Shown: in pieces, positions 1,935 through 22,496 of the stretch | How the letters are laid out: each line of letters opens with the position of its first letter | Numbering within the stretch: position 1 is the stretch's first letter | Origin: a virus | Lineage: Duplodnaviria; Heunggongvirae; Uroviricota; Caudoviricetes | IMG/VR virus record: IMGVR_UViG_2545824713_000005 | Length of the DNA stretch: 24,551 nucleotides | Strand: one strand, 5' to 3' | Translations under genes and position numbers: made by a program | The notes under the pieces: model-generated | What the model saw: only the letters and a program-made list of their open reading frames with translations | The model's database searches: none | What the model was told of the DNA's origin: nothing

Positions 1935-2019
1935 AGTCAGAGATAACAATCAACTAATACTGTTTTGTTGATTTTTGCTTGTAATTGGCGTTCTGGTCTG
2001 ATTTTTGTGGAGTAAGTTG

Positions 2020-2403
2020 ATGCGTGATATTCAGATGGTTCTTGAGCGTTGGGGAGCGTGGGCGGCTAATAATCATGAAGATGTGACCTGGTCGTCCATT
2101 GCCGCCGGTTTTAAGGGATTAATTACTTCAAAAGTAAAATCTCGCCCGCAATGTTGTGACGATGACGCGATGATTATTTGCGGGTGCATGGCCCGTCTGA
2201 AAAAGAACAACAGCGATTTGCACGATTTATTAGTAGATTATTATGTAGTCGGTATGACATTCATGTCACTGGCAGGTAAGCATTGCTGCTCTGATGGTTA
2301 TATCGGGAAAAGGTTACAGAAGGCTGAGGGCATAATTGAAGGGATGTTAATGGCATTAGATATCCGGTTAGAGATGGATATCGTTGTTAATAACTCTAAT
2401 TAA
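2020..2403 (+). CDS. quuD: Q-family late-gene antiterminator (QuuD-like, 127 aa)
   Basis: In-frame ATG inside track ORF 2005-2403: [24 protein letters not shown]...[16 protein letters not shown]...; Cys-rich zinc-binding motifs; position after rusA/ylcG. Confidence 0.85.
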
Positions 2404-2591: not shown

Positions 2592-3674
2592 TTAGAACTG
2601 GTAAACCATACCTACAGCAACGATATCATCGGTAGCAACGCCAGATGCTTTCGTGAAATCGCTCTTATCAATCAGGTTGATTTTGTAATCAACAAAAGTG
2701 GACATATTTTTGTTGAAGTAATAGGTTGCACCTACATCAATATATTCAACCAGGTCCTGATCACCCCACGCACCCAAGTCTTTTCCTTTAGATTGCAGGT
2801 AAGCAACGGACGGACGCAGACCGAAGTCGAACTGATATTGTGCAACTACTTCGAAGTTTTGTGCTTTGTTGGCAATATGGTTATTACCAAAAACAGTCAT
2901 GTTCTGGGTTTCAGAATAGGTGGTAGCCAGATAGATGTTGTTCGCATCATATTTCAGACCAGCTGCCCATACTTCAGCATTTTGACCAGATGCATTCAGG
3001 CTGTTGTTACCGTAGATAACCTGATTATTAGTGCGGTCAGATTTAGCATAGGTTGCACCTACACCGAATCCTTCATACTCATAAGTAGTGGAGAAACCGA
3101 AACCATCACCATTAGCTTCAGTTACGTCAGTGCGGTCATTTTTACCCTGATACTGAGCAGCAAAGTTCAGACCATCAACCAGACCAAAGAAGTCATTGTT
3201 ACGATAAGTTGCAACACCTGTGGTGCGACCAGTCATGAATACATCTGTTTGGGTCCAGGTATCGCCACCGAATTCTGGCAGAACGTCGGTCCATGCACCA
3301 ATATCGTATGCTACACCGTAGTTACGGCCATAATCGATGGAGCCGTAGTCACCGAATTTCAGGCCAGCGAAGGCAAGACGGGTTTTATCTTTGGAGGAAC
3401 CTTGAGATTCAGCGCGGTTGCCTTTGAATTCATATTCCCACTGACCGAAACCAGTCAGTTGATCGTTGATTTGGGTTTCACCTTTGAAGCCAAGACGGGC
3501 ATAAGTAGTATCACCATCATCTGCATCATTAGAGGAGAAGTAGTGCTTAGCATTAACTTTCCCGTACAGATCCAGCTTGTTACTGTCTTTATTATAAATT
3601 TCAGCTGCCTGAGCAGACATCGCCATCAGTACTGATGCAGCTACAGCAGAAATTGCCACTGTTAATTTTTTCAT
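2592..3674 (-). CDS. nmpC: Outer-membrane general porin, NmpC/Lc (OmpC/OmpF family), apparently intact
   Basis: 360-aa protein from [23 protein letters not shown] (signal peptide) AEIYNK... to C-terminal ...VGMVYQF (terminal Phe, typical beta-barrel OMP). The track ORF 2592-3734 is an upstream extension. No IS interruption seen. Confidence 0.9.
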
Positions 3675-3734
3675 CGTGAGCCCTTTTTTTGAACTATTAT
3701 TAAAAAATGATGTCACTGCGCGATAAATATTCAT

Positions 3735-4099
3735 CTAATCAATGTGATTATTTCAAGATGTAAGTTTTGGTTTCTCATTTGATTTGTGAAGTAGATCTCT
3801 ATTTTTATCTGAACTTTTTCTATCGAATCCTATTCATGGCTCTTGGCTGAATAAAAATAAATCTATTGGCCAATTTATATTAATGGCTGTTATTTATAAG
3901 TGCTCTATAATTTGAAGGTTCAATTTAAACCAGCTAAAAATAACGCTGGAAATTATTTGTTGGTTATTTGTTGAGATTTGCTTATGTATTTGTAGTGGTG
4001 TTTTCAATACTCGGTAGCATTCTCGCAAATATCATTTAGTGGTTTACGTACGTAAAAAATTGGTTATGCTGTTAAGAGTGGTTACTTCGTCACACAGCT
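3735..4099. promoter_or_regulatory. AT-rich intergenic region: nmpC promoter/upstream region plus a candidate displaced late promoter (PR'-like, -10 TATAAT at 3906-3911)
   Basis: About 360 bp non-coding and strongly AT-rich upstream of nmpC on the minus strand; a perfect TATAAT on the plus strand lies about 195 bp before the hairpin at 4101-4133; -35 is weak. Confidence 0.35.
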
Positions 4100-4100
4100 T

Positions 4101-4133
4101 AAACCCGCCGTCGAGCGGGTTTTTCCATTTTTT
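4101..4133 (+). terminator. Intrinsic terminator upstream of the lysis genes (tR'-like)
   Basis: 8-bp stem AAACCCGC/GCGGGTTT with 6-nt loop, followed by TTTTTCCATTTTTT; about 130 bp upstream of the holin start. Confidence 0.55.
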
Positions 4134-4261
4134 GAGTCTCGATATTAGCTGATAACCCAATACCTGAGTTATTCACTGACTCCGAGTCTGTTACGTTTCT
4201 GCTTTTTTGCGATACGTTGTATTCCCTCAATTTACACCCGCTTTGTCTGCGAGGTGGGGTT

Positions 4262-4477
4262 ATGAAATCCATGGATAAGTTAACAACGGGTGTCGCCTAT
4301 GGCACCTCAGCAGGTAGTGCCGGTTACTGGTTTTTACAGCTGCTCGATAAAGTCACGCCCTCACAGTGGGCAGCAATAGGTGTGCTGGGTAGCTTGGTAT
4401 TTGGCCTGCTGACGTACCTGACAAACCTTTATTTCAAGATTAAAGAAGATAAGCGCAAGGCTGCGAGAGGTGAATAA
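4262..4477 (+). CDS. essD: Phage-21-type class II holin (pinholin) with dual-start motif
   Basis: 71-aa [71 protein letters not shown]; two TM segments; Met1-Lys-Ser-Met4 dual start; GAGGTGGGG RBS. Confidence 0.85.
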
Positions 4478-4974
4478 TGCCTCCATCATTACGAAAAGCC
4501 GTTGCTGCTGCTATTGGTGGCGGAGCAATTGCTATAGCATCAGTGTTAATCACTGGCCCAAGTGGTAACGATGGTCTGGAAGGTGTCAGCTACATACCAT
4601 ACAAAGATATCGTTGGCGTATGGACTGTATGTCACGGGCATACAGGAAAAGACATCATTCCCGGTAAAACGTATACCGAAGCAGAATGCAAAGCCCTCCT
4701 GAATAAAGACCTTGCCACGGTCGCCAGACAAATTAACCCGTACATCAAAGTCGATATACCGGAAACAACGCGCGGCGCTCTTTATTCGTTCGTCTATAAC
4801 GTGGGCGCAGGCAATTTCAGAACATCGACGCTTCTTCGCAAAATCAACCAGGGCGATATCAATGGCGCATGTGACCAGCTACGTCGCTGGACATACGCTG
4901 GCGGTAAGCAATGGAAAGGGCTGATGACTCGCCGTGAGATTGAGCGTGAAGTCTGTTTGTGGGGGCAGCAATGA
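4477..4974 (+). CDS. rrrD: SAR endolysin (lysozyme, R21-like)
   Basis: 165 aa; N-terminal signal-anchor-release segment [20 protein letters not shown], then lysozyme core (EG.SY...D..G.WT); start overlaps holin stop (TAATG). Confidence 0.85.
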
Positions 4975-5438
4975 GCAGAGTAACCGCGATTATCTCCGCT
5001 CTGGTTATCTGCATCATCGTCTGCCTGTCATGGGCTGTTAATCATTACCGTGATAACGCCATCGCCTATAAAGAACAGCGTGATAAAAAAGTCAGTGAAC
5101 TGGAGAAGGCGAACGCCACCATTACTGACATGCAGCAGCGCCAGCGTGATGCTGATGCACTCGATGATAAATACACGAAGGAGTTAGCTGATGCGAAAGC
5201 TGAAAATGATGCTCTTCGGCGCAAGCTTGATAATGGTGGTCGGGTGCTCGTCAAAGGAAAATGCCCTGTGCCATCCTCAGCCGAAACCTCCAGCGCCTCC
5301 GGCATGGGCAATGATGCCACCGTCGAACTCTCTCCAGTTGCTGGACGAAACGTTCTCGGTATCCGGGACGGAATTATCCGCGACCAAACAGCACTGAGAA
5401 CGCTTCAGGAATACATCAGGACGCAATGCCTTCGATGA
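4971..5438 (+). CDS. rzpD: Rz-like inner-membrane spanin (i-spanin)
   Basis: Start at [26 protein letters not shown] (N-terminal TM), then charged coiled-coil region; ATGA overlap with endolysin stop. Confidence 0.75.
5191..5397 (+). CDS. rzoD: Rz1-like outer-membrane lipoprotein spanin (o-spanin), embedded in the +1 frame of Rz
   Basis: [21 protein letters not shown]: signal peptide with lipobox VVGC, Pro-rich mature part (PQPKPPAPP); wholly nested inside the Rz gene; GAAGGAG RBS. Confidence 0.7.
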
Positions 5439-16329: not shown

Positions 16330-17745
16330 ATGGCTACGTGGCAACAGGGTATTAATTCTGGTGGTTTTCTGGCTGGCATCGGTACGCAAAATGAGAATGC
16401 GCCAAAGGCAAGCGACATTAACGCAACGCTTGGTCTGATCCGCGAAAACAATGAACTGGCTCGCTCAGGTGCAAATAACGTTGGCCTGACCGCGTTACGT
16501 GGTCTGGCTGGAGTTGCTGATATTTACAATCAGGAACAGCAACAGAAAGCTATTAGTGCGTTCAATAAGGTTCACGCTGATGCATGGGCTTCTGGTGATC
16601 CATCGGGACTATTTAAGTTTGCCCAGGAAAATCCAGCGTTTGTTGCACAGGCACAACAGGCGTTTTCCGGTCTTAATGATCAGCAACGCAACGATATGGG
16701 CGATTTAGCCATGAGGGCTAACGTCGCTCTTTCTCAGGGGCCGGAAGCCTACAGTAAATTCATTACTGACAACAAGGACAGGTTAAATCGCGTTGGTGCT
16801 AATGCTGACTGGATGATTCAGACAGGTATCCAGAATCCAGAGCAGCTATCACACATGCTGACTACTATGTCTCTCGGTGCGCTTGGACCAGAAAAGGCGT
16901 TTGCTGTTCAGGATAAGATGGCTGGTCGTGAAATTGACCGAGGCAGGCTGGCAGAGACAATCCGCAGCAATCAGGCTGGTGAAGCACTTCAGGCGAGAGG
17001 GCAAAACCTTTCCTATCAGTCAGCAATGACTGGGCACAATATCGCAGCACAACGCTTGGCTCTGGATCAGCAAGAGTTCGGGTTTAAGATGCAGCAAGCG
17101 CAGGAAAAGGCTCAGCAGTTGATTAGCGAAGCACCTAAGCTGTCAGTAAACATGGAAAAAGGAATCGAGACGGCTGTAAACAATGCCACAGCATCATCAA
17201 ACTCAGCCAATTCCATGAGTGCGCTTGCTCAACAGTTCAGAGCAGAAAAACCAACGACAGGTTTGTTCGGTAACGCACAGAACATGTTCGCAAAACTTAC
17301 CGGAAGCGATACGACATTGCGTGATTTGCGCATTCGCCAAAATGCCCTTGTTAACAGTCAGGTTCTTAAATTCCTACCTCCCGGCCCAGCAACGGATAAA
17401 GACGTTGAGATCGTTAGACAGGGTGCGCCAACTGACATGGATAACCCTGAGACGGTCGCAAGATGGCTTGATGCAATGGCAAACCTTGAGCGACGAAACG
17501 CGCAGTTTAATGAGTTTAAAGCCGAGTGGATGAGCGCGAATGGCAACCCTGGACAATCGCGTAATGGCGGTCAGATATTGGGGTTGGATGTTAAAAAAGG
17601 TGAATCATTGGGGAGTGCCGTTAAGCGGTATATGTCAATGAATACTGACGCAGCGCCAGCACAAGATTCGACACCTTCAGGAGAACCACGGAGTCAGGTT
17701 GGATCATATACCTCAAAATCAGGCATTCAATTTACGGTGGAATGA
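16330..17745 (+). CDS. Ejection protein, P22 gp20-like (471 aa)
   Basis: Size identical to the recalled P22 gp20 and conserved order gp7-gp20-gp16. Confidence 0.7.
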
Positions 17746-19748
17746 TGAAAGTAACTGCAAACGGTAAGACATTTACCTTTCCTGATGGTACGAGCACCGA
17801 AGATATTGGCACCGCCATTGATGAGTATTTTGCTGGTCAGTCAGCACCAACACAACAAGGTGTTCAGCAATCGCCAGCAGACAACTCACTTGCATCAGGA
17901 TATGCACAGCTTGCCACTCAGCAGAAGGAAGGACTAGATCGCTCTGCTGAGCAAGGGGCTGTTTTAGGTGCTGCAATGCGCGATGCCGTTACCGGTGAAA
18001 GCCGAATGACACCAGAAATGGAGAGACTGCAAAATGTTGGGTCTGCTCCAGAGCTTAATAGCTTAAGCACTGATGCGCTGCGTGCTGGATTGGGGCAGCT
18101 ATTTGGTTCCGACGCTTCACAGGAGAAAATACTGCAAAGTATTGGCGGGAAAATCCGGAAGGATGAGAAGGGAAATTCCATAGTCACCCTTCCTTCAGGG
18201 GAATATGCACTTAACAAGCCTGGTTTGTCACCGCAGGATATAACGTCATTCTTGGCAAATGCTCTTGCATTCACTCCAGCAGGTAGAGCTGCGTCTGTTG
18301 TAGGTGCAACACTAAAATCAGGCGCTACTGATTTAGCTTTACAGGGTGCCACTAAGATCGCTGGCGGTGAGAATGTTAATCCAGTTCAAACTGCAATTTC
18401 TGCTGGTCTTGGTGGGGTACTAAAGGGTGTAGAAAACACCGCAAGCGCAGTGTCTCGTTCTGCTATGGGTAAGATTGCTCCTGAAAAACAAGCTCAGATT
18501 GACTTTGCCAAGCAGAACAACTTGCCACTGATGACAACAGATCTTGTGGAACCGGGAACAAATATTGGTAAGCAAGCACGAGCTATGGCTGAGCGAATCC
18601 CAATAGCCGGAACAGGTGGGATAAGAAATGCACAGCAAAAGGCCAGGGAAGATTTAGTTAGAACATTTAGCGATAATGTTGGTGGAATATCTGACGCACA
18701 ACTTTACCAATCAGCTACTCGTGGTCAGCAGCAATTTATTCAGGCTGCTGGCAAGCGGTACGACAGGATCATCAGTTTGATGGGGGATACTCCTGTTGAC
18801 ATCACTGGAACAGTGAAAGCAATTGATGAGCAGATTTCCAAGTTAACTCGCCCAGGAGTATCGCAAGACCGCTCAGCTGTTTCTGTCCTTCAACAGTTTA
18901 GAAATGACATCACCAGCGGTCCAAATAACCTGCAATTAGCTAGAGAAAACCGTACAAACTTACGTAAGCGCTTTATGGCAGCACCTGACGAGGTCGATAG
19001 AGATACGCTGGAGAAAGCTGCGCAGTCTGTTTATAACGCATACACAACAGACATGAAAAAAGCGGTTGGCGCAAAACTAGGTGCGAAGGAAGCGCAAAAC
19101 ATGTCGCGTGTTGATCGTTCTTGGGCAAAGTTCAACGACATGATGAGCAATACACGTGTCCAAAAAGCTATTCAGAGTGGTAAAACAACGCCAGAAGATG
19201 TCACTAAACTAGTATTCAGCCAAAGCCCAGCGGAAAGGGCGCAACTTTATCGATTGCTTGATGATAGTGGGCGTCAAAATGCTAGAGCAGCACTTGTTCA
19301 GCGTGCAATGGATAAGGCGACAAGCGATTCAGGAAAGCTTAGCGTTGAGAAGTTTATTAATGAAATGAAAAGGAATCGGAAGCAGGCTGAGACGTTCTTC
19401 AGAGGAGAGCATGGGAAACAGCTTGATGGGATAATGAAATATCTTGATTCCACTAGACAGGCAGCTACTGCTGCCGCAAGCCCACTAACAGGGCAAATGG
19501 TAGCTGGTCCAGCAGCGCTGATAACAGCTCTTGCGTCTGTTACAAATCCAATGTTTGCAAAAGTTGCGGCAGTTGGAGCTGGTATCGGTATGGCTGGCAG
19601 GGGCTATGAGTCACGCGCGATGAGGAACGCATTACTAAAGTTAGCAAACACGCCAAAAGGAAGTACTGCTTATGATAGAGCGATCAGACGGGTATCTGAA
19701 ACTCTTACACCTCTAATTCAGGCTTCAAGTGAGCAAGCCCAGCAGTAA
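17742..19748 (+). CDS. Ejection protein, P22 gp16-like (668 aa)
   Basis: Large A/G/Q-rich protein after the gp20 homolog; ATGA overlap with gp20 stop. Confidence 0.7.
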
Positions 19749-19756
19749 AAAGTTGG

Positions 19757-20077
19757 TTAGCGGTTGATGGTTGCTTTTTTCGGGTCATACCATCTCGGCC
19801 ATTCTTTCAGGAATGGGAATGAGTCGGGAGCGTGGTTCTTTTTGTACGATTTAAGCAGCCTTAACCGCTCAATCGCACACTCATAAACCTCTTGTTGCCC
19901 TGTAGTCATCTCGGTCCATGAAAGGTGATCCATTGATAAGACAACGTTTTCAGCTTCTTTTATGAGGGCGTTTTTATTTCTCACCGCAGCAGCATGGCTG
20001 ACAGAGCAATCCTGCCATATTCTTAAAAGCCAAATAGCTAAGCAGATGAAAAAAATGGTAGAGAGCGATATGTACAT
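19757..20077 (-). CDS. Hypothetical single-pass membrane protein (106 aa), last gene of the mnt-side leftward cluster
   Basis: MYISLSTIFFICLAIWLLRIWQD... N-terminal TM helix; AAGGAG RBS; AT-rich codon usage unlike the flanking structural genes; convergent with gp16, 8 bp apart. Confidence 0.55.
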   Translation of the reverse strand: MYISLSTIFFICLAIWLLRIWQDCSVSHAAAVRNKNALIKEAENVVLSMDHLSWTEMTTGQQEVYECAIERLRLLKSYKKNHAPDSFPFLKEWPRWYDPKKATINR

Positions 20078-20157
20078 GCCGATCTCCTTAGATTTATCAA
20101 TGCTGCATGATTTTCAACAGACATCAATCATGCAGCTATAGGTAATAAATCAAGAAA

Positions 20158-20658
20158 CTATTGAGAACGTTTGTCTTTTTGAGACTCTAATATAGCCAAT
20201 ACCTTATAAAGAGATTGGTTTGTTGAGTCTAATTTTTGATCAGTGTTATCAATCCTTGACTGTAATACTGATTGGTTGTTTTGGATAGTAGCCATTATCT
20301 CTGCCTTACTGGTTTGGATGTTTCCTGTTAGCTCTTGTCGTGATGATTCAACTTTATCATCTATAGTGCCTCGAATCGTCCATGTGGCGGCAACGATAGA
20401 ACCAATGATAGCAACTGCAACCCCGTATAGCTCTAAACGTTTCACGGTATCACGACCTTCTTCTTTGTGTTGCTCTTCTTGTAGGCTAAATATTTGTGGT
20501 TCCTTTGACGGATTTCTGTCAGTTGGTCTGTAATACTCTGAATATTTAGCGTTTTCTATTGAACTCCATAACGATTTGTCAAAGTCAAGGTTTTCATGTT
20601 GGCTTTGAGCATCTCCATAAATACTAGGTGATTTATTGTGAACATGTTGGTCAAACAT
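20158..20658 (-). CDS. Hypothetical membrane protein (about 166-170 aa) with central TM helix and C-terminal coiled-coil-like region; possible SieA-type exclusion protein
   Basis: Track ORF 20158-20670 begins at a GTG; I favour the ATG at 20658 with GGAG RBS. Central TM segment LYGVAVAIIGSIVAATWTI; start region overlaps the stop of the upstream Cys4 gene. Confidence 0.5.
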   Translation of the reverse strand: MFDQHVHNKSPSIYGDAQSQHENLDFDKSLWSSIENAKYSEYYRPTDRNPSKEPQIFSLQEEQHKEEGRDTVKRLELYGVAVAIIGSIVAATWTIRGTIDDKVESSRQELTGNIQTSKAEIMATIQNNQSVLQSRIDNTDQKLDSTNQSLYKVLAILESQKDKRSQ

Positions 20659-20998
20659 TATCTCCATCACCCTTTACGAATTTTCCAGAAGAGATATTTT
20701 CACTAACTTTGTTTAAACTAAAAAAGTGGAAGAAACCGCAAGTGGTGCATTGCATGGCTACCATGTTAAGACTATCGTTGCTATAAGTATCTTGATTAAC
20801 AGGATTATTAGGCAAGCTTTTACCTGGTATGGATGGGCCTATAACTTCAACACCATCATCTTTTTTAAGATGCTCAGGTGCTAAAAGAGTCCAGTTTGTA
20901 TTGCTGCATATTGGGCATACATAAGTTTTTTTGAATGAAGTCAAGTAATTACTAAAAGACTCAAAAGTAACTTTTAAGTATTGCTCCTTACTGCTCAT
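20651..20998 (-). CDS. Hypothetical Cys4 (zinc-ribbon-like) protein (115 aa), translationally coupled to mnt
   Basis: CPIC...(52 aa)...CTTCG motif; ATG overlaps the mnt stop (TAATG on minus strand); AT-rich. Confidence 0.5.
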   Translation of the reverse strand: MSSKEQYLKVTFESFSNYLTSFKKTYVCPICSNTNWTLLAPEHLKKDDGVEVIGPSIPGKSLPNNPVNQDTYSNDSLNMVAMQCTTCGFFHFFSLNKVSENISSGKFVKGDGDNV

Positions 20999-21237
20999 TA
21001 TTGGCCTCGAATCTTCTTAAGTACGCTAATTGCAATATCCATTGCTTCCTTCTCTGTTTTTGTGAGATCTTGAGATGTCGATGGTATGACCTTTTCTCTG
21101 TTAATCTTAATCCATAGCTGTATTGCAGCTATGATTTCAGCATTGATAGAGCGCCTGTTTGTTGCCGCAATGTGAGTAAGCTGCTGCTTGATTTCACTTG
21201 GCATTCTTACGTTAAATTGTGGATCGTTTCTAGCCAC
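20998..21237 (-). CDS. mnt: Mnt-like ribbon-helix-helix repressor (immI maintenance repressor)
   Basis: MARNDPQFNVRMPSEIKQQL... resembles the recalled P22 Mnt N-terminus (MARDDPHFNFRMP...); GTG start with AGGAGA RBS; divergent from arc. Confidence 0.85.
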   Translation of the reverse strand: MARNDPQFNVRMPSEIKQQLTHIAATNRRSINAEIIAAIQLWIKINREKVIPSTSQDLTKTEKEAMDIAISVLKKIRGQ

Positions 21238-21330
21238 GTCGCTCTCCTGTTATTTGTTGACATGCTAGAACGGTAGTAGTACGCTTTCAATAGTAGTACG
21301 GTGCTATCATTTAATGGAATGGAGTGGAAT
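21238..21330. promoter_or_regulatory. Divergent overlapping Pmnt / Pant promoter-operator region
   Basis: Plus strand TTGACA at 21257-21262 (Pant -35); on the minus strand -35 TTGAAA (21285-21290) and -10 TAGCAT (21262-21267) with 17-bp spacing (Pmnt); two direct copies of TAGTAGTACG at 21274-21283 and 21291-21300. Confidence 0.5.
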
Positions 21331-21492
21331 ATGCAAGGCGCAAGAAAAATGCCGCAGTTCAATTTGCGGTGGCCTAAAGAAGTATTGGATTTGGTACGCA
21401 AGGTGGCGGAAGAGAATGGTCGGTCTGTTAACTCTGAGATTTATCAGAGAGTAATGGACAGCTTTAAGAAGGAAGGGCGCATTGGCGCGTAA
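21331..21492 (+). CDS. arc: Arc ribbon-helix-helix repressor (53 aa)
   Basis: [53 protein letters not shown], near-identical to the recalled P22 Arc; start is the internal ATG with GGAG RBS inside track ORF 21301-21492. Confidence 0.9.
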
Positions 21493-21494
21493 AG

Positions 21495-21565
21495 TTGAAG
21501 CCCCAACTGCGGGAACAGTCAGGGCTTCGGTTGTCGGTAAATTCGTGGAGAAAAACCAACATGAA
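21495..21565 (-). ncRNA. Candidate sar-like antisense RNA covering the arc-ant intercistronic region and ant RBS
   Basis: By analogy with P22 immI: minus-strand TATACT -10 overlapping the ant start, and hairpin GAAGCCC...GGGCTTC at about 21503-21532. Ends not determined. Confidence 0.3.
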
Positions 21566-22496
21566 TAGTATAGCAATTTTAGAAGCAGTGAACACCTCTT
21601 ACGTGCCTTTCAATGGTCAGCAGATTTTAACCGCTGTGGCTGCCGGAGTGACTTATGTAGCGATGCGTCAAATTGTGGAAAACATTGGTATCGACTGGAC
21701 TGGTCAATCTGTTAAGTTGCGTAAAATGAAGGACAAATTCAACTGTAGAGATATCTCTATGGTTGCTGCTGATGGCAAGTTACGTAAGCTTTTATGCATC
21801 CCGCTGAAGAAGTTAAATGGATGGCTGTTCAGCATCAACCCTGAGAAAGTTCGTGCTGACATCCGTGATAAACTGATTCAGTACCAGGAAGAATGCTTTA
21901 GCGTGCTGCATGACTACTGGACTAAAGGTCATGTAGTTAACCCACGCAAAGCTAAAAAGGCGTTGCCGGGTAAAATCACCACTGAACAGCAGGAAGCCAT
22001 TAAACAACTCGTCATGAGTCGCGGTCAGTCTCTGCCAAAAGAAAAACAGGCTAAGGCGATGATCACCATGTGGTCGTCACTGAAATCCCATTTTGGATGT
22101 TCGTACAAAGAAATCAGTGAGGAGCAGTTTACCGAAGCACTATCACTTGCAGCTCGAGTTCCACTTGAAGGTGAGTTCATTGGCAAACAAGAGAAGAAAA
22201 CCAACGAGCTTTCTGCAAAAGAAGCAAACAGCCTTGTATGGTTATGGGATTATGCTAACCGCTCACAGGCATTATTCCGCGAACTGTATCCGGCATTAAA
22301 ACAAATTCAATCGAACTATTCCGGCAGATGCTACGACTACGGTCATGAATTCTCGTATGTTATCGGAATGGCGAGAGACGTTTTAATCAATCACACACGC
22401 GATGTTGATATCAATGAGCCAGACGGACCAACGAATCTTTCCGCATGGATGAGACTTAAGAATAAAGAATTACCTCCTTCAGTACATAACTACTGA
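21561..22496 (+). CDS. ant: Antirepressor Ant (311 aa)
   Basis: Start at [21 protein letters not shown]... with GGAG RBS (track ORF begins earlier at 21495); immediately downstream of arc as in P22 immI. Confidence 0.8.

Follow-up and report, generated by a model that had tools for sequence, protein, structure and literature searches.

The stretch of DNA analysed here, 24,551 nucleotides (nt) of a virus of the class Caudoviricetes (IMG/VR record IMGVR_UViG_2545824713_000005; hereafter the window), carries three small genes, orfA, orfB and orfC, on the strand of an mnt-like maintenance repressor gene and directly downstream of it. We found that orfA and orfB are inherited together and recur behind prophage repressors of several types, and that orfC adjoins the neighbouring phage gene 16 and is also found in genomes without the other two. 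In the interpretation we favour, whose probability we place somewhat short of even, the interval holds two separate accessory units expressed in lysogens, and orfA-orfB is a two-component superinfection-exclusion or abortive-infection system; here we infer expression from the mnt promoter (Pmnt), membrane topology, anti-phage function and the respective roles of OrfA and OrfB. Judged from sequence comparison of many independent loci, there is good support for the pairing, for the repressor-linked slot, for orfC being independent and for the lack of known homologues.

Inheritance of orfA-orfB and of orfC

Positions 19600-21600 of the window are 100% identical to Escherichia phage N7 (MH717096), a P22-like Lederbergvirus isolated from swine faeces, and to phage HZ41. 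The initial annotation of this DNA had treated the three genes as a single system. Their distribution speaks against this, with orfA and orfB strictly paired and orfC present in 19 viral contigs and 19 E. coli genomes without them. Both orfA and orfB reside on the same 6 IMG/VR contigs, and the orfA homologues (23-37% identical) of no fewer than 12 divergent Enterobacterales lineages each have an orfB homologue immediately after them. Scanning IMG/VR with an OrfA sub-alignment yielded 13 distant loci (loci are denoted below by L numbers), and in 12/13 of these an orfB homologue overlaps or abuts orfA, encoding a protein 30-45% identical to OrfB, 158-174 amino acids (aa) long, with one transmembrane (TM) helix at approximately residues 75-100. 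At the thirteenth and most divergent locus, L092, the partner is a 101-aa protein with a coiled coil and a TM helix. On the contigs of five further orfA representatives (Serratia, Providencia, Arsenophonus and one metagenome lineage), the partners matched the OrfB hidden Markov model (HMM) at 1e-16 to 1e-38, L097 excepted. Moreover, the pair is present in lambdoid prophages that carry no orfC.

The partners at L092 and L097 were rejected as orfB homologues, being undetected by the search and reversed in order (coiled coil, then TM helix). At both loci (L092:3872-4589 and L097:673-1268, plus strand) a divergent orfA-like gene lies behind a repressor with helix-turn-helix (HTH) and S24 domains, and is accompanied by a partner of ~95-100 aa whose match to haemolysin XhlA (E = 0.015) falls below the Pfam threshold. 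This partner may be an analogous effector of different topology.

In every lineage but one, the gene immediately upstream of the pair on the same strand encodes a prophage maintenance repressor. This repressor is of the Mnt type in the P22-like N7, L080 and Serratia L093, the last with the order tailspike, mnt, orfA, orfB, two small open reading frames (ORFs) and gene 16. It is of the CI type with an S24 peptidase domain (Pfam) in L081-L091, in Providencia L094/L095, and in L092 and L097, which carry the two most divergent orfA homologues; in Arsenophonus L100 it has an HTH domain only. At the lambdoid loci the pair lies between cI and N, with cro, cII and the replication genes divergent on one side and an N-type antiterminator gene downstream (arginine-rich motif AKTRRHERRRK, Pfam N_peptide). 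One OrfA allele stands behind two different CI repressors in two Providencia genomes (L094, L095), and in the L098/L099 lineage the pair has no adjacent repressor, which shows that the module moves as a unit and is tied to no particular repressor. Owen et al. single out the slot behind the repressor as a hotspot of mosaicism served by the repressor's own, strongly expressed promoter; it is home to lambda rexA-rexB and to bstA of prophage BTP1, and is heavily transcribed in lysogens (PMC8585504, PMC12894663).

Presumed co-transcription with a maintenance repressor, in all but one lineage, would also suit a role of orfA-orfB as accessory lysis-lysogeny regulators, for example as a membrane-tethered zinc-finger factor modulating repressor, antirepressor or induction. 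Zinc ribbons often bind nucleic acids, and per-member Pfam scans gave weak Zn_ribbon_13 matches (0.0013) in 5 OrfA family members. However, the repressors upstream are mechanistically unrelated (ribbon-helix-helix (RHH) Mnt, which controls ant, versus HTH-S24 CI), and both the allele shared by two CI proteins and the repressor-free L098/L099 lineage argue against a dedicated regulatory link. Furthermore, between N7 and L080 or L093, all of which carry the pair, Mnt is 80-81% identical, with OrfA at 33% and OrfB at 34-37%, indicating rapid divergence or allele replacement of the two passengers; divergence so much faster than that of Mnt is unexpected for a core regulatory partner, and we consider the regulatory role quite improbable.

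Close relatives of the pair are scarce. A tblastn search of 50,697 phage records matched OrfA and OrfB only in N7 and HZ41, a word-indexed protein search returned almost no relatives of either beyond identical copies, and the lambdoid variant of the pair (L086) was absent from complete E. coli genomes at megablast sensitivity.

The distribution of orfC follows a different pattern. Its homologues form 14 clusters at 65-99% identity. The whole cassette was found at 99% identity or more in 41/5,426 complete E. coli genomes (megablast), and 19 more genomes matched positions 19700-20095 only, a segment made up of orfC with its ribosome-binding site and the last part of gene 16. Similarity to these orfC-only prophages stops at ~20095, just short of an inverted repeat upstream of orfC, and the gene upstream of orfC in them encodes either a 193-aa soluble protein coupled to another mnt, or a CI/LexA-like HTH-S24 repressor. 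Among IMG/VR contigs, orfC occurs in 25, of which 19 lack orfA-orfB, and it adjoins gene 16 in 25/25 contigs typed; the cargo between orfC and mnt is orfA-orfB, the 193-aa protein, an HTH-S24 repressor, a P22 orf59-like gene, or nothing. The identities of orfC and gp16 move together (99%/99%, 66%/87%, 42%/37%). Outside this setting, mEp043_049 (PHROG 10450) is a true OrfC homologue (hhalign 98.2%, 35% identity over 72 residues) located 15 bp downstream of cI in the lambdoid phage mEp043, and thus likewise directly behind a repressor gene; unlike N7 orfC, it sits in a siphovirus backbone with no gene 16 neighbour. In HB37-type prophages, orfC is again directly behind an HTH-S24 repressor, so that the OrfC family, too, appears to be repeatedly placed in transcription units active in lysogens.

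These distributions bear on the possibility that the three proteins act together as one SieA-like complex, stopping the DNA of P22-like phages from entering at the inner membrane. The three genes occupy the interval in which P22 carries sieA, two of the three products are membrane proteins, and orfC identity tracks the gp16 allele, SieA itself acting on gp16 and gp20 (PMC10883804). Yet orfC and orfA-orfB are inherited independently, orfA-orfB is mostly found in lambdoid prophages without a gene 16 context, the proteins have neither similarity to SieA nor its motif and contain one TM helix, not three or four, and simple physical linkage explains the covariation of orfC with gp16. We regard a single complex as highly improbable.

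P22-like prophages collected by the gp16 C-terminus carried differing small membrane proteins or lipoproteins at the gene-16-proximal site, consistent with the description of this region as a variable 'ant moron' (PMC2629481). They include a 143-aa lipoprotein (lipobox LSAC; L068/L069:3905-4336, minus strand), a pair of multi-TM proteins of 123-125 aa and 73-102 aa (L070:3921-4526 and L074/L075:3922-4615, minus strand) and a secreted protein of 116-117 aa (L064:4251-4601 and L073:4324-4677, minus strand), none of them related to SieA or orfC. A 99-aa TM protein beside gene 16 in L080 was rejected as an orfC homologue (hhalign probability 0.2%).

Other cargo was found on the mnt side. The 193-aa protein, which is soluble and matches no Pfam family, is encoded at L004:4596-5177 (minus strand; E. 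coli CREC7837) and also in L025, L026, L029 and L030; its gene lies between mnt and orfC, with a 4-nt overlap with the stop of the other mnt allele, and adds a further uncharacterised passenger to the mnt operon. At L063:4033-4960 (minus strand), two overlapping small ORFs for soluble proteins (90 aa and 139 aa), unrelated to orfA/orfB, come after the gene for a Mnt with 77% identity to the N7 protein; they make up a third kind of two-gene passenger in translational coupling with mnt. In L003 (4439-6053; E. coli HB37), L035, L040 and L067, the mnt/arc/ant genes are replaced by a CI/LexA-like HTH-S24 repressor and a protein with the P22 antirepressor C-terminal domain only, and orfC is kept beside gene 16. 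One of three 'plasmid' matches to the gene 16-orfC segment, NZ_CP081778.1, is listed as a plasmid and is a phage-sized replicon of 39,448 bp; this could be the genome of a P22-like phage that is extrachromosomal or has been misassigned.

Organisation and predicted expression of the locus

Four leftward genes, mnt, orfA, orfB and orfC, occupy the minus strand between gene 16 and arc/ant. The features of the region are as follows:

17742..19748, plus strand: gene 16, ejection protein (668 aa), named from N7 and E. coli prophage annotation; Phage_P22_gp16 (Pfam) was recorded on the L093 homologue
19757..20077, minus strand: orfC, 106 aa, N-terminal hydrophobic helix; convergent with gene 16 across an 8-bp gap
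20078..20157, minus strand: orfB-orfC intergenic region, 80 nt, with an 11-bp perfect inverted repeat (20102-20112 / 20126-20136)
20158..20658, minus strand: orfB, 166 aa from ATG, single-pass membrane protein; an alternative GTG at 20670 would give 170 aa
20443..20460, minus strand: possible internal orfB start, GTG at 20443-20445 with GAAGG (20456-20460) upstream
20651..20998, minus strand: orfA, 115 aa, soluble, zinc-ribbon-like, with CPIC...CTTCG motifs
20998..21237, minus strand: mnt-like maintenance repressor, 79 aa, GTG start, RHH; Pfam Arc match
21262..21290, minus strand: candidate Pmnt promoter (TTGAAA, 17-nt spacer, TAGCAT) just upstream of the mnt GTG
21301..22496, plus strand: arc and ant (Pfam Arc 1.1e-30; P22_AR_N/C)
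21493-21560, minus strand: sar antisense RNA (Rfam RF00262, 94 bits)

The ORFs, start/stop overlaps, four-cysteine motif, OrfB TM helix, N-terminal OrfC helix and 11-bp inverted repeat reported in the initial annotation are all present. All four leftward genes are real genes, orfA, orfB and orfC because each of the three has conserved homologues; the N7 record lists the three as hypothetical proteins ORF14-16 and the gene upstream of them as 'arc family DNA-binding protein'. That gene's product matches Pfam Arc (PF03869) through its N-terminal RHH domain at 4.8e-13, which passes the curated cut-off, and shares 48% identity with residues 1-40 of P22 Mnt (N-terminal domain). Since the sar RNA is also present (Rfam), the mnt-arc-sar-ant circuit of the immI region appears complete; the tailspike gene, too, is part of P22-type immI surroundings.

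The orfA ATG and the mnt stop overlap by one base (TAATG), and the orfB ATG at 20658 overlaps the orfA stop (ATGTTTGA). With these overlaps and a promoter-like site upstream of mnt, the proposal that the genes are coupled to a repressor expressed in lysogens holds. The candidate Pmnt was found by a consensus scan (9/12 matches) and is a pattern match alone, at the place that Pmnt occupies in P22. Also as proposed, the gene 16-to-mnt interval corresponds to the location of sieA in P22 itself; in P22-like phages it is known as a variable slot, the 'ant moron'/sieA region (PMC2629481, PMC10883804).

The initial suggestion that the trio as a whole is more AT-rich than its flanks stands for two of its members. 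The GC content is 0.348 in orfA and 0.378 in orfB, and at 0.40 mnt is low as well; that of orfC (0.436) is near the value for arc-ant (0.442), with gene 16 at 0.471. The AT-rich island therefore comprises mnt, orfA and orfB, without orfC. The difference between 0.35-0.38 and 0.47 suggests horizontal acquisition of the orfA-orfB module.

The orfB-orfC junction is also predicted to form a stable RNA stem. An 83-nt segment (20078-20160, minus strand) folds at a dG of -25.9 kcal/mol, compared with -14.9 +/- 3.3 kcal/mol for shuffled sequences (z = -3.3), and the 11-bp repeat is the top of a stem that pairs the sequence just past the orfB stop with the orfC Shine-Dalgarno sequence (AAGGAG). An intrinsic terminator at this inverted repeat was rejected, as it has no U-tract and was not called by a terminator scan. 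Plausibly, orfC may be translated only after ribosomes have finished orfB or some other event has unfolded the stem.

Predicted properties of the three proteins

OrfA has no signal peptide or TM segment. In a 13-sequence alignment of its homologues (24-33% identity), C28, C31, C84 and C87 are invariant, together with L19, G88 and F93, and because of this invariance the four-cysteine motif can be taken as a genuine signature of the family. A full HMMER search of 1.84 billion representatives gave 16 matches, 8 of them below 1e-10, at ~30-35% identity and mostly 104-133 aa long. These relatives come from Serratia, Edwardsiella, Yersinia, Jejubacter, Providencia and Arsenophonus, and every one is annotated as hypothetical; OrfA itself belongs to phrog_4293, a PHROG of unknown function.

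An AlphaFold2 (AF2) model of OrfA built from 13 sequences has a predicted local distance difference test (pLDDT) score of 66 overall and 78-87 in its core. This core begins with an N-terminal helix and ends with a C-terminal one; between them lie the first knuckle, with one strand after it, and the second knuckle, with two strands around it. A long, variable, low-confidence loop (residues ~40-76) separates the knuckles. With two CxxC knuckles that are invariant across the family and set on a modelled beta-hairpin scaffold, OrfA is a predicted zinc-ribbon protein with a putative metal site. Named zinc-ribbon families in Pfam gave sub-threshold matches only, the best hit of the OrfA profile among PDB sequences was non-significant (Churchill zinc protein, E = 0.023), and the model matched nothing among solved or viral predicted folds.

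OrfB contains one TM helix at residues 77-95 (nt 20374-20430). Conservation (frequency of the most common residue in each column, averaged) is 0.35 over the N-terminal ~75 residues, 0.67 in the TM helix and 0.57 over the C-terminal ~65 residues; G79, W93, T94, I99, K102, R107, E109, E120, R135, D137 and L157 are invariant. Small residues recur at positions 79, 83, 86 and 90-91 of the TM helix, a face that may serve in helix packing. The initial annotation described the C-terminus as coiled-coil-like, which we could not confirm: its hydrophobic periodicity peaks at 3.6-3.67 residues and not at the heptad value of 3.5, pointing to a long amphipathic or hendecad-type helix in place of a classical heptad coiled coil. 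Lysine and arginine are consistently richer at the N-terminal flank of the TM helix, and this bias, with the long N-terminal tail, weakly favours an N-in/C-out topology. The best match of the OrfB profile among PDB sequences was non-significant (E = 0.25).

The family may also produce a second form of OrfB. A methionine lies 6-12 codons ahead of the TM helix in all of the nine distant homologues first examined (9/9), and also in the later set, and a GGAG-like run precedes it in most of the nine; the homologues concerned are those of L080-L091 and L093-L100. N7 orfB has GTG (20443-20445) at this position, with GAAGG before it, and its product would be ~95 aa. This arrangement suggests a shorter OrfB consisting of the conserved TM helix and C-terminal helix alone. 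In being small and having a conserved candidate in-frame start just before the TM segment, OrfB resembles dual-start membrane effectors, examples of which are the lambda S105/S107 holin-antiholin and P22 SieB/Esc. Unlike the lambda holin gene, orfB lies in the immunity region and not in a lysis cassette, and OrfB matched no SieB or holin family in Pfam scans.

These features of OrfB would also fit a toxin-antitoxin-like or addiction module that stabilises the prophage, with OrfB as membrane toxin and OrfA or the short OrfB as neutraliser. The operon is compact, with two overlapping genes, the TM helix with its small-residue face and the amphipathic helix are conserved, the candidate internal start recalls holin/antiholin or SieB/Esc, and the partner of the most distant orfA homologues has the sub-threshold XhlA match noted above. 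We nevertheless judge an addiction module distinctly unlikely, as no toxin-antitoxin family was matched and strict siting behind repressors is untypical of such modules; toxin-antitoxin and abortive-infection functions do overlap, which leaves this possibility partly compatible with an anti-phage role.

The AF2 model of OrfC (pLDDT 86.6) has a helix at residues 5-48 that includes the hydrophobic anchor, a second helix at residues 59-77, and a conserved extended tail (KKNHAP...EWPxW). Because its N-terminus is uncharged and basic residues follow the anchor, the charge distribution suggests an N-out/C-in topology.

Comparison with known systems and proposed mode of action

Scans of the four proteins against Pfam, PHROGs, NCBIfam and PADLOC returned, for orfA-orfC, only PHROGs of unknown function and sub-threshold zinc-ribbon or coiled-coil noise, and per-member Pfam scans of the OrfA and OrfB families likewise found no named family. 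PADLOC-DB 2.0 gave 0 matches at E <= 1 for Mnt, OrfA, OrfB and OrfC, the family scans produced no match to KilA-N/BstA, holin or toxin-antitoxin families, none of OrfA, OrfB and OrfC resembled any solved or viral predicted fold, and literature searches turned up neither a characterised equivalent of the cassette nor anything on the N7 accession. The three ORFs had initially been described as belonging to no recognisable family and as having no homology to SieA that could be shown, and both statements agree with our searches, the profile scans and OrfA fold searches having given no characterised homologue. In BLASTP comparisons with P22 SieA, OrfB and OrfC gave E >= 4.4 or no alignment, and no ORF of 38 related P22-like loci typed matched SieA; SieA of types B or C could escape BLASTP in both cases. 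The SieA motif FxRYPxEAxxFNK was not found in OrfB or OrfC by regular-expression search, its relaxed form included.

Three known systems invite comparison. SieA has three to four TM helices and carries this motif on the cytoplasmic side (PMC10883804). Like P22 SieA (types A, B and C), OrfB and OrfC are small inner-membrane proteins whose genes lie on the leftward, lysogen-expressed strand between gene 16 and mnt/gene 9, and orfC stands exactly in the sieA position, abutting gene 16; unlike SieA, each has one TM helix, no motif and no sequence similarity to it. The closest parallel in layout is lambda RexA/RexB, together with the RexAB-type systems of Sbash, CarolAnn and P. putida P1: neighbouring genes encode one cytoplasmic and one inner-membrane protein, in a two-gene operon directly downstream of the maintenance repressor and presumably co-transcribed with it, in lambdoid genomes within the cI-N interval itself (PMC8585504, PMC12894663). 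In contrast, OrfA has neither homology to RexA nor its fold, and OrfB has a single TM helix in all homologues, whereas RexB has four. The resemblance to RexAB is thus one of architecture and position, not of family membership. Finally, BstA of prophage BTP1 and other repressor-adjacent abortive-infection genes also hold a conserved place downstream of diverse Gram-negative prophage repressors (PMC8585504), but BstA is a single large cytoplasmic protein with its own self-immunity DNA element, aba, and no sequence similarity to the pair.

Position and architecture make an anti-phage function the most likely reading of orfA-orfB, and we put a little under one half on the pair acting against superinfecting phages by exclusion or abortive infection. 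In the model we propose, the first unit is mnt-orfA-orfB, in which orfA and orfB would be translationally coupled to each other and to Mnt, and would therefore be produced for as long as the prophage keeps up lysogeny. OrfA, as a cytoplasmic zinc-ribbon protein, would sense or regulate, and OrfB would be the inner-membrane effector, oligomerising by way of its long amphipathic helix and the small-residue face of its TM helix before compromising the membrane or obstructing incoming phage DNA; the short isoform from the conserved internal start may modulate full-length OrfB. The second unit would be orfC, encoding an independent, N-terminally anchored small protein fixed beside gene 16 in this gp16 lineage, and probably another membrane factor expressed by the prophage. 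A role of the locus in superinfection exclusion or defence, as put forward in the initial annotation, is a reasonable inference and is strengthened by synteny with the rexAB slot.

Several points weigh against this interpretation. Guilt by position is imperfect, and repressor-adjacent morons can serve other roles. None of the three proteins matches a SieA, RexA/B, SieB, Pfam, NCBIfam or PADLOC family, and the failure to match the OrfA fold is weak evidence, coming from a model of moderate confidence (pLDDT 66). The module is also rare, occurring in the 41 of 5,426 complete E. coli genomes given above and in 2/50,697 phage records. The predicted topology of OrfB hangs on a small lysine/arginine bias, and an N-in OrfB would place the conserved helix in the periplasm, apart from cytoplasmic OrfA, complicating a simple sensor-effector contact.

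One such other role is lysogenic conversion, in which the genes would benefit the host apart from phages, for instance in virulence, colonisation or envelope stress. The E. coli whose prophages carry these AT-rich morons are pathogenic and animal strains, a porin moron is present in this phage as well, and bstA was first tied to virulence phenotypes (PMC8585504). The proteins have, however, no signal peptide and no known virulence domain, and the tie of the genes to phage immunity regions is conserved across genera of differing lifestyles. We therefore hold host conversion to be unlikely.

It is also possible, if doubtful, that exclusion or abortive infection by orfA-orfB represents a new family of two-component prophage defence, with a zinc-ribbon sensor, a single-pass effector and a self-modulating short isoform, carried on a cassette that moves among P22-like and lambdoid repressor operons across Enterobacterales. 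Such a family would be an analogue of RexAB built from unrelated proteins, and orfC would be a second exclusion factor that replaces SieA.

Repressor-adjacent slots have given both classic and recent abortive-infection systems (RexAB, BstA and RexAB-type), and little is yet understood of how these work. At 115 aa and 166 aa, a pair as small and compact as orfA-orfB, holding this slot across unrelated repressors and several genera, is a tractable new candidate. Should the pair protect lysogens, prophage immunity would gain a new protein architecture and a simple model for the restraint of a membrane effector, and the absence of sieA in two-thirds of P22-like phages would be easier to explain. 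If it does not, its strict synteny needs another cause, such as prophage maintenance or lysis-lysogeny control.

Elsewhere in the window, a gene for a 380-aa Gram-negative porin lies at 2592-3734 (minus strand; Pfam Porin_1, 3.7e-153), flanked on the opposite strand by the Q antiterminator gene (2005-2403, plus strand) and by lysozyme/Rz lysis genes (4477-5438, plus strand). GC content is low near the porin gene, at 0.33-0.35 over ~3500-4250. The gene resembles porin morons of the Lc/NmpC type, which are already known as lysogenic-conversion genes.

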